This document shows positions 41,120 to 51,178 of a DNA stretch of 64,000 nt, piece by piece (positions within the stretch are counted from its first letter, which is position 1; each line of letters opens with the position of its first letter). The notes beneath the pieces are model-generated. The model was not told the DNA's origin. It saw only the letters and a program-made list of their open reading frames with translations, and did not search any database. Location: contig OZ024743.1 of NCBI GenBank assembly GCA_964016885.1, forward strand, positions 84,630,001 through 84,694,000, in the 5' to 3' direction. The position numbers and the translations under genes were made by a program. This DNA is from Eledone cirrhosa. Its lineage: Eukaryota.

Positions 41120-42978
41120 GTTAGAGAAGCCAAAAATTGCTTATTGTGATCCAGTTTTTGGTTAAGAAAGCCAGTTTCATGGATGGTTTCAACGTACGGT
41201 TAGGGGTAACTCCACAAGTTTGTAAGAATTCTGTTCAATCTTGGAGTATAAAGTATAAAAGGGAAAACACAGGTAAGCATTAAGAGAAGGATTTTATCCA
41301 GGTATTTACGACCGTTTCATTGGTAAGTGCAACCTTATATTGCTATACTGCAAATAGCAGCCACTCAATTATAATTGTTGTTCACAGTCCAAATTTTCAA
41401 AATAGTGAGTTACTCTTGAAATAATTCTTAATATATAGAGAAAAACATTTATTTGGAATTGTATTTACTAGTATATAGAGAGAGGAATCAGGAGGTGAGG
41501 GGACAGACGGCATAGTATAGAGAGAGAGGAAGGGGGAAGAGGTAGGAAGTAGAATGACAAACTGAGATGGAGGGAGGGGTAGAGGTGGAATGATTTTTTG
41601 GTCAGTTTTGATAGCAGACATCATGTCGTGGAGTGTAGTGAGTTAAAGAGAATTAAATAGATAATAGTGGGAGGGATGGATAGAGAGGGAGAGAGAGAGA
41701 GGGGGGAGATATAAAGAGATAAATATATATATATATATATACACACACACACACACACATACATACACACATATATACACACATACATATACATATATAT
41801 ATATATATATATATATATATATATATATATATATACATATACATATATATACTCATACATACATACACACATATATATATATAATAAATAAAAATAAAGA
41901 TAATAATGTAAATGTGGTTGGTGTTAGGAAGGGCATCCAGCTGTAGAAAACCCGCCAGACAGTCCTATGCGAGCAAGACAACCACTCTTGCCTCAAGTGG
42001 GAAAACCCCTGTCCAAACCCATGCAAGCGTGGAACACGGACGCTAAACCTGATGATGATGATGATGATGATGAATGACAAAAATAAAAGCAAAGAAGGGG
42101 GTGAGAAAGAAGAAAAGAAAAGATAGCCAAGAAGGGGGAAGGAAGGAAGAAAGAAAACGAAGAAATATAAGAAGAATGAGGGAGAAGAGGGGGATATATG
42201 TATTGGTTTTGTGGGTAATTAAAGGGTTTAGATATTAGAGGGTATAAAGTCTAAGTATATGCAGTTTGTCAGTTGGTAGTAAGAGGTTAAGGGTTCGATT
42301 TGTAGTGCGAAAACTTCTCTTTGAGTCTATGGTTACAATAAATTGATCTCTCAATTTTATTGTTGAGTAACCTATTCTTCGAACTTAAGATGTGGAACAG
42401 CTCAAGGTCGCATAATCGACAGCTTCTCATACCACTCCGATATGGGGGCGCGTTCGATAATTTTTTCCCCTTCAGGGTGTATTGATGGTTACTTTCCCTC
42501 AGTTGCCAGGTCTTGTTTGCAAGGGTAGTTACATAACGGTGCTGGGAATGTTTCATTGCGTAACGGTGTGTATACCAACGAGCTTTAAATGTATTCCCAG
42601 TCGCTCCGATGTAATACCATTTCTGGTTGTCTGATACCACTGTGCATTGGTAAACCAGGTTAGACTGCATACATTCATTTTGTAATGGACAGGTTTCAGG
42701 TAGGTGGCAGTTACATTTCTTGTTATGGGCAACTTTGGCATTATTTGTGGGCTGCGATGCCTGAACAAGTGTGTTACGTTTTGTTTGCCTATTAGCGGGT
42801 GGTTGTGTATTAGATATTCTGTTGTGTTCGGTGGTAATTGTATTGTTATTGTTGTAAATTTGTGTTTTGGTGTTGTTATGTATCTTTTTAGCGTTAAGCA
42901 TCTTAATGTGTGTCTCTATATTTGGTGCCGTAGATTTAGTGTTAAGGATTTTGCTGTATCTATGTGAATCTGGAAAGT
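41120..42978 (-). mobile_element. Penelope-like element 3' part (GIY-YIG endonuclease 42287-42901, then interrupted 3' repeat)
   Basis: CNC...[26 protein letters not shown]......C.H. Confidence 0.85.
41303..41404 (-). ncRNA. Hammerhead-like motif with U3-A8 core
   Basis: UAUU-UUGAAAA-uUUGG...CCAAu-GAAAC-GGUC-GUA/AAUA. Confidence 0.5.
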
Positions 42979-42980
42979 GC

Positions 42981-44510
42981 CTATATGTATGTATATATAT
43001 ATATATATATATATATATATATATATATATGTATATATATATATATGTATGTATATATATATATATGTATGTATATATATATATATGTATGTATATATAT
43101 ATATATGTATGTATATATATATATATGTATATATATATATATATGTATGTATATATATATATATATGTATGTATATATATATATATGTATGTATATATAT
43201 ATATATGTATATATATATATATATATATATATATATATATATATATATATATATATATACATGTATGTATATATATATATATACATGTATGTATATATAT
43301 ATATATATATGTATGTATATATATATATATGTATGTATATATATATATATATATGTATGTATGTATATATATATATATGTATGTATGTATATATATATAT
43401 ATGTATGTATGTATATATATATGTATGTATGTATGTATATATATATGTATGTATGTATGTATATATATATATATATGTATGTATGTATATATATATATAT
43501 ATGTATGTATGTATATATATATGTATGTATGTATATATATATGTATGTATGTATATATATATATATGTATGTATATATATATATATGTATGTATGTATAT
43601 ATATATATATGTATGTATGTATATATATGTATGTATATATATGTATGTATGTATGTATATATATGTATGTATATATATGTATGTATGTATGTATGTATAT
43701 ATATATATATGTATGTATATATATATATATATGTATGTATGTATATATATATATATGTATATATATATATGTATGTATGTATATATATATATATATGTAT
43801 GTATATATATATATATATGTATGTATATATATATATATATGTATGTATATATATATATGTATGTATGTATGTATGTATGTATATATATATATATGTATGT
43901 ATGTATATATATATATATATATATGTATGTATATATATATATGTATGTATGTATGTATGTATGTATATGTATGTATGTATATATATATATGTATGTATGT
44001 ATGTATGTATGTATATGTATGTATGTATGTATGTATGTATATATATATATGTATGTATGTATGTATGTATGTATATGTATGTATGTATGTATGTATGTAT
44101 ATATATATATATATATATGTATGTATATATATATATGTATGTATGTATGTATATATATGTATGTATGTATATATATGTATGTATGTATGTATATATATGT
44201 ATGTATGTATGTATATATATATATATATATATATGTATGTATATATATATATGTATGTATGTATGTATATATATGTATATGTATGTATATATATGTATGT
44301 ATGTATATGTATGTATATATATGTATGTATGTATATGTATGTATGTATATATATATATATGTATGTATTATGTATATATATATATATATGTATATATATA
44401 TATGTATGTATGTATATATATATGTATGTATGTATGTATATATATATGTATGTATATATATATGTATGTATATATATATATGTATGTATATATATATATA
44501 TGTATGTATA
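42981..44510. repeat. Compound (TA)n/(TATG)n microsatellite, ~1.5 kb
   Basis: Direct. Similar arrays at 35075-35415, 36025-36290, 36850-37440 and 45300-45510. Confidence 0.98.
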
Positions 44511-44660
44511 CAGTAGTTTCCGTTGTGTTGTAATATAAATATTACACACAGTAGATTATCAGCTCACGTAGAGTTTGCTCGACGGTTCCAGTTGTAGTTC
44601 CAAAAGTAATCCGGAGAAAAATAGAAAGATTTGAATGGATACAGTTTAGTTGAAAGGAAT

Positions 44661-48138: not shown

Positions 48139-48180
48139 ATTCCTTTCAACTAAACTGTATCCATTCAAATCTTTCTATTC

Positions 48181-49400
48181 TATATATGTATGTATATATA
48201 TATATATATGTATGTATATATATATATATATATATATATGTATGTATATATATATATGTATGTATATATATATATATATATATGTATGTATATATATATA
48301 TATGTATGTATATATATATATATATGTATGTATATATATATATATATATATATGTATATATATATATATATATGTATGTATATATATATATGTATATATA
48401 TATATATATATATATATGTATGTATGTATATATATATATATGTATATATATATATATATATATATATGTATGTATGTATGTATGTATGTATATATATATA
48501 TATGTATATATATATATATATATATATATATATGTATGTATGTATGTATGTATGTATATATATATATATGTATGTATGTATATATATATATATATGTATG
48601 TATGTATGTATATATATATATATGTATGTATGTATGTATATATATATATATGTATGTATGTATGTTTGTATATATATATATATGTATGTATGTATATATA
48701 TATATGTATGTATGTATGTTTGTATATATATATATATATATGTATATATATATATATGTATATATATATATGTATATATATATATATATATATATATATA
48801 TGTATATATATATATGTATATATGTATATATATGTATATATGTATATATATATATATATATATATATATATATATATGTGTATGTATATATGTATGTATA
48901 TATATATATGTGTATGTATATATGTATGTATATATATATATATATATATATATATGTGTATGTATATATATATGTATATATATATATATATGTGTATGTA
49001 TATATGTATGTATATATATATATATACATATATATATATATATGTGTATGTATATATGTATGTATATATATATATATATATATGTATATATATGTGTATG
49101 TATATATGTATGTATATATATATATATATATGTATATATATATATATGTATATATATATATATATATGTATGTATATATGTATGTATATATATATATATA
49201 TGTATATATATATGTATGTATATATATATATATATATATGTATATATATATGTATGTATATATATATATATATATATGTATATATATATGTATGTATATA
49301 TATATATATATATATGTATATATATATATGTATGTATATATATATATATATGTGTGTATATATATATGTATGTGTGTGTGTATGTATATATATATATATA
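48181..49400. repeat. Compound TA-rich microsatellite, ~1.2 kb
   Basis: Direct. Confidence 0.98.
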
Positions 49401-51178
49401 AATTAATAAAAACAAAGAAACAGTTCCTTATATTAAAAGATTCATCATTTTACGATCGTTTCTAGGATATATATGTGTTTGTGTTGGTATGTATATCATA
49501 CAGATCTATGTAAAATTTTTACAAACTATCAGAGGGAATATACATACCTACACATATATATGCTGTCTTCAGAAATAATTATTTCTACTTTAGGCACAAG
49601 GCCAGCAATTATCCAGTGCATTACTGGTACTTTATTTTATCGACCCCGTAAGGATGAAAGGCAAAGTCAACCTCGGTGGGATTTGAACTCAGATCGTAAA
49701 GGGACGTAACTATGCTGGAAACAGAAATAATGATATTTGTTTATTGAAAAAACCAACAAAGATTTAATATAATAGGTCTGTTTGGGAACAGGTTTTGAAT
49801 TGACCAATAGAAAGGTAGTAAGTGGTCAAGATGGTAGAATAGTAGTAATGGAACTTTAATTTAGGGGTAGAGGAGAGCAGACTTCAGTTTTGAATGGAAA
49901 GAGTATGATGAATGAAAAGATTATTTTAGGGATGAAAATAGGTCAGGTCGGTAAAAGGTACACGACAAATTGATGTTATAAAAAGAATAATGCTAATGTA
50001 AATATCTAAGGAGTAAAATTTTACGGTAAATGTGTTAGTGAAAAATATCAATCTTATTTAAAATATAGGGAATTTACATCTATAAAGAAAATAAATTAAT
50101 TAAATTAATAGGTATATTTATATTGATAAATTTATATTAATTCATATAGATATGATAAATAAGAGTTAGATGTAATTGAAGAATGTTGTTAAAAACGAAG
50201 GGAAAATAAAAAAATAATAATAATAATTGGGGGGGGGGTAAATGTATTAGTGAGAAATAACAAATTTATATAGATTATAAGGAATATAGATTCATAACCT
50301 GAAACTAAAATAGTTTATATGTATACTTATTGGTATAAATTTTAGGAAAAGATAGCTGTAAAAGGGAAATAAAATTATGCAGTTCATTAGTAGTAGAATA
50401 TTAATTATAGGTTAACCAATTTTAAAAAAACAAAAAAAAAAACAATTATTATAATAATTTGTAAAGTGTATATTAATTAGGTTTATAATATTTAAAAGTT
50501 CTTCTAATTTTATGATTACATGATATAATTAATTCTTGTCGCTTGTTTAATAGGATATCCTTAGATCTCATTATTTCAAAAAGTTCCTGGGATCATAATC
50601 TACTATTTTGATAAGGGGTGGTCCTTTTGAGCACACTCCAGGTCAGGTTATAATCGATATTCTTTTTTCTATAATTATTAATTATTTCAGCTAAGGATGT
50701 TGTATTAGCTAATGCGGCATTTTTAAAACTGTGTTTGTGGGTATTAAATCTTTAAATTGGTTAGAAGTAGCTCCTATATATGAATAAGTTGAGTCCTTAG
50801 TGTTAATTTTACATTTATATACTATGTTATTAATAAGGCATTTTCCTTTTAATGGGCAATTTGCTTTGTTTCTACAGTTACAACCTTTTGTGAATGTTGT
50901 ATCAGAGGAGATAGTCAAATTAGGTGTGGAATTTTCTCGACTTGTTGTATGTGAATGAGATGGTGGTTTGCTGTGGTTTATTTTAGAATTATGGTTAGTT
51001 CGATGTATTGGTGGTATATTTATGGTTTTTTTACATTGACTTTTTTTATCTTGACTCTGTTTTCCAGTGTTTTTCATCGAAAAAATTTTGAATACATCTT
51101 CTCTTTTCATGATATTTGGATTACATTGAGTTCTTCATACGGATTGGACACTACCGTACATTTTGGTAGATTTATCTA
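49401..51178 (-). mobile_element. Third Penelope-like remnant (GIY-YIG ~50470-51110, AT-rich 3' region, terminal HHR, SINE insertion)
   Basis: GCNCR.K.NCPL.GKC...IVYKC...YSYIGATSN.FK; frameshifted. Confidence 0.8.
49446..49577 (-). ncRNA. Hammerhead with extended stem II at the third Penelope terminus
   Basis: UAUUU-CUGAAGA-cagcAUAUAUAUGUGU...ACACAUAUAUAUccua-GAAAC-GAUC-GUA/AAAUG. Confidence 0.7.

Follow-up and report, generated by a model that had tools for sequence, protein, structure and literature searches.

Hammerhead motifs with a very long stem II in three families of Hydra-clade Penelope-like elements in a stretch of Eledone cirrhosa DNA

Introduction

Penelope-like retroelements (PLEs) are known to carry type I hammerhead motifs. 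As described by Cervera and De la Pena (2014, PMC4209133), PLE hammerheads have a palindromic helix III and low activity as dimers, and a U3-A8 pair is known from Schistosoma PLEs. The descriptor used there limits stem II to 7 bp plus a loop of 10 nucleotides (nt) plus 2 extra nt, 26 nt in all, and permits a "possible extra N10/N11". Among the 26 Hydra rows of File S2 of Craig 2021 (PMC8557442), 14 have U.U at positions 10.1/11.1 and one has U.C, the stem II region is at most 26 nt long, and an Octopus Hydra family is listed with a stem II region of 23 nt. The present analysis concerns a stretch of 64,000 nt from Eledone cirrhosa (assembly GCA_964016885.1, contig OZ024743.1, positions 84,630,001 to 84,694,000 of the forward strand), referred to as the window and numbered from its first base. 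At the 3' ends of three families of PLEs in the window, hammerhead motifs with an intact core carry a stem II of 75-103 nt.

The Hydra clade is described in PMC8557442 by DKT in place of DKG, an RWK motif, a CxCx5C linker, a C-terminal GIY-YIG-type domain, CxxC/CxH flanking E and N, absence of the CCHH motif, insertion at (TA)n, an inverted copy and tail at the 5' end and a short length (<3 kb), the last as a general rather than a strict trait. The same paper reports that Naiads spread without canonical hammerheads, and that some PLE families are recorded without a ribozyme or with a "half core" whose second half lies 35-50 nt away. According to Perreault 2011 (PMC3088659), natural U10.1-U11.1 variants of the hammerhead exist, and no other mispair supports as much cleavage as U.U. 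The hammerhead of an Anolis PLE cuts only with the element protein, and mutants of it had no effect on insertion in vitro, according to Frangione 2024 (PMC11167929).

The motifs in the window resemble the Hydra-clade hammerheads of PMC8557442 in their type I fold near the 3' end of a PLE with a C-terminal endonuclease, DKT, CxCx5C and (TA)n, and in their short stem I, palindromic stem III and unpaired 10.1/11.1. They differ in the length of stem II (at most 26 nt there, 75-103 nt here) and in the occurrence of A.A. With the minimal PLE hammerheads of PMC4209133 they share the pseudo-long terminal repeat (pseudo-LTR) as site, U3-A8, a helix II longer than canonical, the palindromic helix III, the expectation of dimer action and inverted pairs on opposite strands, whereas the minimal motifs have a bulged base before a conserved G10.1-C11.1 and a helix II of 6-8 bp. 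Two plant entries in PMC8557442, both from another clade, are also comparable. In PLE-X1_sMoe of spike moss, marked as deviating, some 54 nt separate the two halves of the core, but these are listed with a 35-nt loop rather than as paired arms of 75-103 nt; PLE-X1_cBra of Chara has C.A at the base of stem II. The variants of Perreault 2011 likewise open stem II with a mismatch and include U3-A8, but their stem II is very short and weak, in contrast to the very long helix seen here. The mismatches U.U and C.A and the U3-A8 pair are already known; the long stem II is the unusual trait. A.A at 10.1/11.1 was not found in the hammerhead literature examined. No report of a 75-100-nt stem II in PLE hammerheads was found in a literature set that covered dimeric PLE hammerheads and relaxed descriptors incompletely, and a stem II of 75-103 nt in three Hydra families may, without certainty, be new as a structural variant.

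Results

A relaxed hammerhead scan of the window gave nine matches, four of them away from element ends, and recovered, at the positions given, all four long-armed motifs, M1 to M4 (Table 1), that a sequence-only reading had pointed out as having the core, a short stem I and a palindromic or nearly palindromic stem III. Each has three helices and an open stem I: a stem I of 4-7 bp, a hairpin as stem II, and a stem III of 2 bp with a palindromic loop. Core positions C3 U4 G5 A6 N7 G8 A9 / G12 A13 A14 A15.1-U16.1 / H17 are complete in M2-M4. M1 (core UUGAAAA) differs by a compensatory U3-A8 pair, the single swap noted before; its stem II region is 75 nt long with U.U at the base, the inner part of stem III is CGGUCG, the site is GUA and stem I has 4 bp. 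M2 and M3 have A.A at the base of stem II, the stem III palindrome CACGUG, a GUC site and a stem I of 5 bp; stem II is 121 nt long in M2 and 91 nt in M3 (48031-48121; 36 pairs, 7 of them G.U). M4 combines a stem II of 103 nt, C.A at its base and microsatellite-like arms with the stem III palindrome CGAUCG and a GUA site. The paired 10.1-11.1 of the hammerhead consensus (G-C) is absent from each of these four motifs, as had been claimed.

The 121-nt stem II of M2 consists of the 91-nt form plus a TA-rich insertion of 30 nt at about 44687-44716. M2 and M3 are identical in 353 of 384 aligned columns, 30 of the remaining columns being this one insertion, and 47826-48179 is an inverted copy of 45003-44620 that otherwise differs by one substitution. 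Because M2 and M3 are one sequence, carried by the same pseudo-LTR, the four motifs, all of them real, represent three independent ones and not the four originally counted.

It could be argued that the motifs are chance matches of a relaxed pattern in AT-rich DNA. Four of the nine loose-scan matches lie away from element ends, and the strict descriptor was written, and so tuned, after the motifs had been seen. However, that descriptor gave five matches in the real window and one in 100 block-shuffled windows, and M1-M4 all lie on the sense strand, 50-190 nt from the element end, as in relatives. Chance is hardly credible as an explanation. The assignment of M1-M4 to Penelope elements as type I hammerheads also stands, all of them being found at the 3' ends of PLEs.

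Table 1. Positions of the hammerhead motifs and of the elements that carry them, in window coordinates.
Feature	Positions	Strand	Description
M1	41303..41404	-	family B type I hammerhead fold, near-palindromic stem III; cut predicted after 41307
M2	44661..44810	-	sense-strand hammerhead of element A
M3	48019..48138	+	inverted copy of the family A hammerhead; cut predicted after 48133
M4	49444..49579	-	family C hammerhead; core at 49572
M5	63673..63743	-	hammerhead with 36-nt stem II, G-U at its base, 8-bp stem I and palindromic stem III
ORF A (open reading frame of element A)	45749..47827	-	692 open codons (47827-45752): reverse transcriptase (RT; DKT, YRDD), CxCx5C linker and GIY-YIG endonuclease
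Element A 3' end	44513..45003	-	pseudo-LTR 45003-44620 and an extension of about 107 nt to 44513; ends at (TA/TG)n microsatellite
Inverted pseudo-LTR copy	47826..48179	+	abuts ORF A at its truncated 5' end; ends at a microsatellite
Family B remnant	42287..42982	-	linker and C-terminal GIY-YIG endonuclease, open frame, 41% identical to ORF A
Family C remnant	50485..50984	-	frameshifted linker and endonuclease of a Hydra-type PLE; long AT-rich 3' untranslated region (UTR), then M4
Short interspersed repeat	49570..49731	-	inserted at the 5' arm of M4; 10-bp direct repeat 49570-49579 / 49722-49731

Each stem II region folds, in comparison with shuffles, as one long hairpin whose first and last base are unpaired, in agreement with the earlier description of hairpin-forming inserts of some 75-120 nt. 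The z scores are -2.51 for M1, -4.84 for M2, -5.25 for M3 and -4.90 for M4; 3, 0, 0 and 0 shuffles, respectively, folded as well out of 200 each. The fold of M2 survives the 30-nt TA insertion in its arm. The stem II arms of families A, B and C share no alignable sequence, and the UTRs of the families cannot be aligned either, yet each of the three retains the core, stem I and the palindromic stem III. On the sense strand the arm of M3 folds at -26.8, versus -8.8 on the antisense strand; when perfect inverted repeats were decayed at random in a simulation, 24 of 1000 matched this gap; the arm of M4 folds equally on both strands. The G.U pairs and sense-only fold of M3 hint at selection at the RNA level. 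Between two copies, stem III would form a homoduplex of 8 bp, with energies of -11.7 (A), -12.0 (C) and -7.8 (B) kcal/mol. In a nearest-neighbour calculation, none of the five motifs reaches a probability of 0.2% for its monomer fold; this calculation ignores core contacts, lacks a canonical control and is not used as evidence.

The long insert might instead be a spliceosomal intron; stem II would become compact again once it was removed, and the ribozyme would be gated by splicing. When a GT..AG segment of 67 nt is taken out of M3, a closed hairpin of 24 nt is left, a length common in relatives, and an intron overlaps the hammerhead of Drosophila virilis Penelope, according to PMC4209133. However, this deletion ranks only third among 21 deletions of equal length, neither M1 (ranks 21/29 and 15/20) nor M4 (best 20/58) has a GT..AG segment that yields a good compact stem, and much of the supposed intron is paired, both internally and with exon sequence. 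A spliced insert is thus very unlikely.

By motif and homology, elements A, B and C are three divergent families of Hydra-clade Penelope-like retroelements. A protein search with ORF A retrieved 39 relatives. ORF A reads ADKT, and D31 K32 T33 are invariant in 18 aligned proteins; CNCx5C is present in A, B and C and is followed by IIY..YVG-type motifs. The CxxC/CxH pattern around E and N takes the form CKLC..E..N..E..CRH in A and CRLC..E..N..E..CNH in B. RWK is the consensus of the ORF A homologues, the best match (P0001) having RWR; ORF A itself lacks about 75 N-terminal residues, lost at the inversion point. Pfam gave no RT or GIY-YIG/endonuclease match in three proteins, so that these domain calls rest on motifs and homologues, and a PDB sequence search gave no match. 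The family C remnant is 30-45% identical to A. In a quick tree of the C-terminal region comprising A, B, C, P0001 and 47 other rows, the relatives all being unnamed ones, A and B are sisters (Shimodaira-Hasegawa approximate likelihood ratio test, SH-aLRT, 99); together with C and P0001 they stand apart from the 47 other rows (96). A, B and C seem, on this tree, to form one sub-branch with long 3' UTRs.

A sense-strand hammerhead lies behind a Hydra-type ORF or its remnant in all three families, and all three terminate at TA-rich microsatellites. On the minus strand, element A runs from the inverted pseudo-LTR through the truncated ORF A, a 3' UTR of ~940 nt and M2 to (TA/TG)n at 44513, ~150 nt further on; such an inverted pseudo-LTR at the 5' end of an element is described in PMC8557442. 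Despite its 5' truncation element A measures at least 3.3 kb (47827-44513), beyond the <3 kb typical of the clade, because of its long 3' UTR with an internal microsatellite. In B and C a remnant, a long UTR, a hammerhead and a microsatellite follow in series on one strand; the 3' UTR of B reaches M1 and is broken by a repeat tail (41907-42073) and a microsatellite. The 10-bp target duplication at M4 covers the arm of stem I together with core bases one to three, and the ribozyme arm is thereby preserved. Stem I of M4, 7 bp at present, lengthens to 9 bp when the flank beyond the inserted repeat is used, and this fit to the pre-insertion flank gives independent support for the helix. The inserted repeat has many copies in the window (for example 9707-9890, 22907-23088 and 56681-56868).

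The segment 45003-44810 was considered as the endonuclease end of a second element and rejected, as it had no profile match. A lone CUGAUGA at about 45610-45660 (minus strand), ~90 nt past the stop of ORF A, occupies the usual position of a Hydra hammerhead; it has no stems and was not counted, and is possibly a vestige of an older 3' end.

M5, a fifth motif that the sequence-only reading had passed over, is intact on the minus strand and belongs to an inverted repeat of 300 bp (63630-63928) beside (TA)n. M5 occupies one arm of this repeat, and the opposite arm holds a second hammerhead copy in which both the core (C3.A8) and stem III are broken; nearby, no remnant of an ORF was detected. Short-stem copies near 21965-22006 (minus strand) had likewise been passed over. 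The region 21933-22363 holds an inverted pair of degenerate hammerheads with an 11-nt stem II, U3.G8 and U3-A8 cores and GUU sites, and a fourth, frameshifted Hydra-type endonuclease remnant lies at 21123-21767 (plus strand); a link between the two is not certain.

Compact relatives were obtained from a metagenome scan, in which the best 80 of 371 confirmed stretches gave 76 loci. The strict descriptor found a hammerhead in 54 of these, 49 of them distinct. Stem II of the 49 spans 10-29 nt, versus 75, 91 and 103 nt in B, A and C, some three to four times the greatest length among relatives. Their 10.1/11.1 positions are U.U in 20, G-C in 20, G-U in five and A-U in four; none has A.A, and U.U and paired states are intermixed across the tree. 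The unpaired base of stem II had been taken as part of a lineage-specific variant. That part is not supported, given U.U in these 20 relatives and in 14 of 26 published Hydra rows, where it is listed as canonical, C.A in the Chara PLE, the extra N10/N11 permitted by the 2014 descriptor and the natural variants of Perreault 2011. The core lies 45-266 nt past the stop codon in 34 related loci and 516 nt past it in one, in contrast to 944, 887 and 913 nt in the window with inserted repeats counted in. In related loci with a broken frame the distance is 466 and 772 nt; two loci measured from another copy of the ORF were excluded. Motifs were found in five of eight genome-bin loci, with a stem II of 12-24 nt. 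Hydra-type elements with compact hammerheads stand on contigs filed in bacterial genome bins (L077-L084), which are most likely host DNA carried into those bins. No relative was found on viral contigs. A scan of the related loci without the stem II pairing rule, allowing up to 300 nt, gave scattered matches only, with no common position. A long-gap pattern seen in five loci, none with a stem I of more than 1 bp, was read as chance.

An alignment of 47 compact motifs (45 of the 49, four near-copies being dropped, plus two from the unrestricted scan) shows covariation in all helices, with 168 cells changed on both sides and none of 500 shuffles reaching this, a result that is partly circular in that the motifs were chosen by a pairing descriptor. 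Positions 10.1/11.1 are unpaired in 21 of the 47. A covariance model built from this alignment matched 14 of 28 held-out loci and, in the window, the motifs with a stem II of 36 and 11 nt (E 0.0003 and 0.003). The long-armed motifs fared differently: M1 scored E 0.93, M2 and M3 gave partial, wrong alignments (E 0.22) and M4 gave no match. It had been proposed that length-limited searches could miss such motifs. Both the published limit of 26 nt and the failure of the compact model on M1-M4 agree with this. Rfam gave no hammerhead match on 47900-48178, the region of M3. It also gave none in eight of eight related loci with compact motifs, and the miss of M3 is therefore not due to the length of stem II. 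Over the whole window, the Rfam matches listed were microsatellite-driven or other sub-threshold matches and two tRNA-like matches.

Element A is partly present in 20 sequencing runs from 16 studies, seven of which contain at least half its words; no RNA data set appeared among the 24 runs listed, a result without bearing on expression. Four runs (X1, X7, X8 and X11) were compared on 47826-48178. One contig of X1 covers the whole stretch, one low-depth contig of X11 crosses the motif, and X7 has two overlapping contigs; X8 has no contig there, which is no proof of absence. The full arm of 88-92 nt is found in three of the four runs, from three studies with three organism labels; X1 may be the source of the window itself. 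The variants are a bulge substitution and a loop insertion in X7 and a 3-nt deletion in X1 and X11, so that two of the three fall in bulge and loop. None of the three runs covering the arm has the 30-nt insertion of M2. Judged from these contigs, the long arm is inherited in family A. At 48099-48147, several X7 contigs share the 3' half of the motif and then differ upstream, which suggests further related families with another stem II.

The window as a whole is AT-rich, animal-like DNA, rich in microsatellites and retroelement remnants, with repeats that may resemble those of octopus genomes. Several LINE-type reverse transcriptase remnants lie at 10961-13217, 15264-18099 and 37448-41092, three of one family with (GAT)n tails; an RT frame of 720 codons and a frame for an endonuclease are found in 15264-18099. 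A tandem array of about 6 kb (24280-30230) has a short unit and extreme strand skew (GC skew about -0.86). A near-perfect inverted repeat of 142 bp (58068-58209) has sub-threshold matches to microRNA families in Rfam. The tRNA-like heads above the Rfam tRNA threshold, at 31328-31385 (minus strand) and 52573-52630 (plus strand), lie within a repeated element, as would be expected of tRNA-derived short interspersed elements.

Discussion

The explanation leaned towards here, and considered more probable than not, is that M1-M4 are weak Hydra hammerheads assisted by dimerization or by a protein, with a stem II that grew by tolerated fold-back insertions. Once the element end had been transcribed, stem II would form a stable rod of its own and keep A9 beside G12. 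Because a single copy of the palindromic stem III is too weak, it would pair with a second copy of the RNA. Cutting after GUC or GUA would be slow and would probably occur only as a dimer or with the element protein, as in other PLE hammerheads. The unpaired 10.1/11.1 may be a tolerance inherited from the clade in the form of U.U, with later drift towards A.A and C.A. The arm is not part of the catalytic core, and its growth is most likely due to fold-back and microsatellite insertions, retained for as long as pairing was preserved; the 3' UTR and stem II may both have lengthened within one sub-branch. Since the arms are unrelated in sequence, the M4 arm is microsatellite-like and M2 has absorbed an insertion, tolerated fold-back growth is the simplest account.

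Several results weigh against this explanation. M2 and M3 point in opposite directions, which keeps them from dimerizing in a single transcript, and shuffled sequences fold as well as M1 taken as a whole motif (z -0.47). Since U.U is tolerated best of all mispairs, A.A and C.A should be slower. The strand asymmetry is confined to M3 and was tested post hoc, and equal gaps are common in GT-rich repeats of the window. Family C is a long branch of unsure placement in a tree that comes from a quick search only. The 3-nt deletion in the runs keeps the hairpin but weakens it (-24.1 versus -26.8, rank 34 of 86 possible deletions), and in X7 the change T>C at 48020 disrupts base pair four of stem I, its partner having no listed change. 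Among the variants in the runs, which show a highly uniform family, none was compensatory within the long arm.

Some of these observations also fit a dead relic, in which Hydra-derived hammerheads no longer cut and have accumulated purine mismatches and insertions because cleavage is dispensable for transposition. The lack of effect of the Anolis mutants on insertion in vitro and the spread of Naiads would agree with dispensability (PMC11167929, PMC8557442). The broken stem I pair in X7, the absence of A.A from all 49 relatives, the repeat inserted into M4 and the microsatellite in M2 point the same way. However, all conserved core bases and stems I and III persist across three families that show 30-46% identity in their endonuclease domains and have UTRs that cannot be aligned, and U3-A8 in M1 is a compensatory pair. 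A relic is possible but unlikely.

Alternatively, the long arm may be a selected module: a docking site made of double-stranded RNA (dsRNA), bound by the element protein or by dsRNA-binding or editing enzymes of the host, through which cleavage would be turned on or off, or a 3'-end handle on the upstream product. A long paired arm in three families with unrelated arm sequences, the G.U-rich and sense-only fold of M3 and the need of the Anolis hammerhead for element protein (PMC11167929) are in line with such a role. Yet the arms share neither sequence nor length, relatives work with a stem II of 10-29 nt, the microsatellite-like arm of M4 folds equally on both strands, and the arm shows no covariation. 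A selected module is accordingly a doubtful prospect. Equally doubtful is a broader form of the idea, in which stem II of the Hydra sub-branch would be an RNA-selected dsRNA arm and binding by a protein or host enzyme would decide cutting, for example through A-to-I editing at A.A or C.A; a hidden long-armed class might then exist in elements recorded without a ribozyme or as a "half core".

On their sequence and predicted folds, the long-armed hammerheads are to be seen as a variant in structure rather than in mechanism. Hammerheads in animal genomes have been counted with descriptors limiting stem II to near 26 nt. Since an intact core is kept across 75-103 nt in three families, recorded absences of the ribozyme may partly be search artefacts. 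If M1-M4 cut, they would be natural tests of how far purine mismatches are tolerated at 10.1/11.1, and of the ability of a long stem II to take the place of loop-loop contacts.

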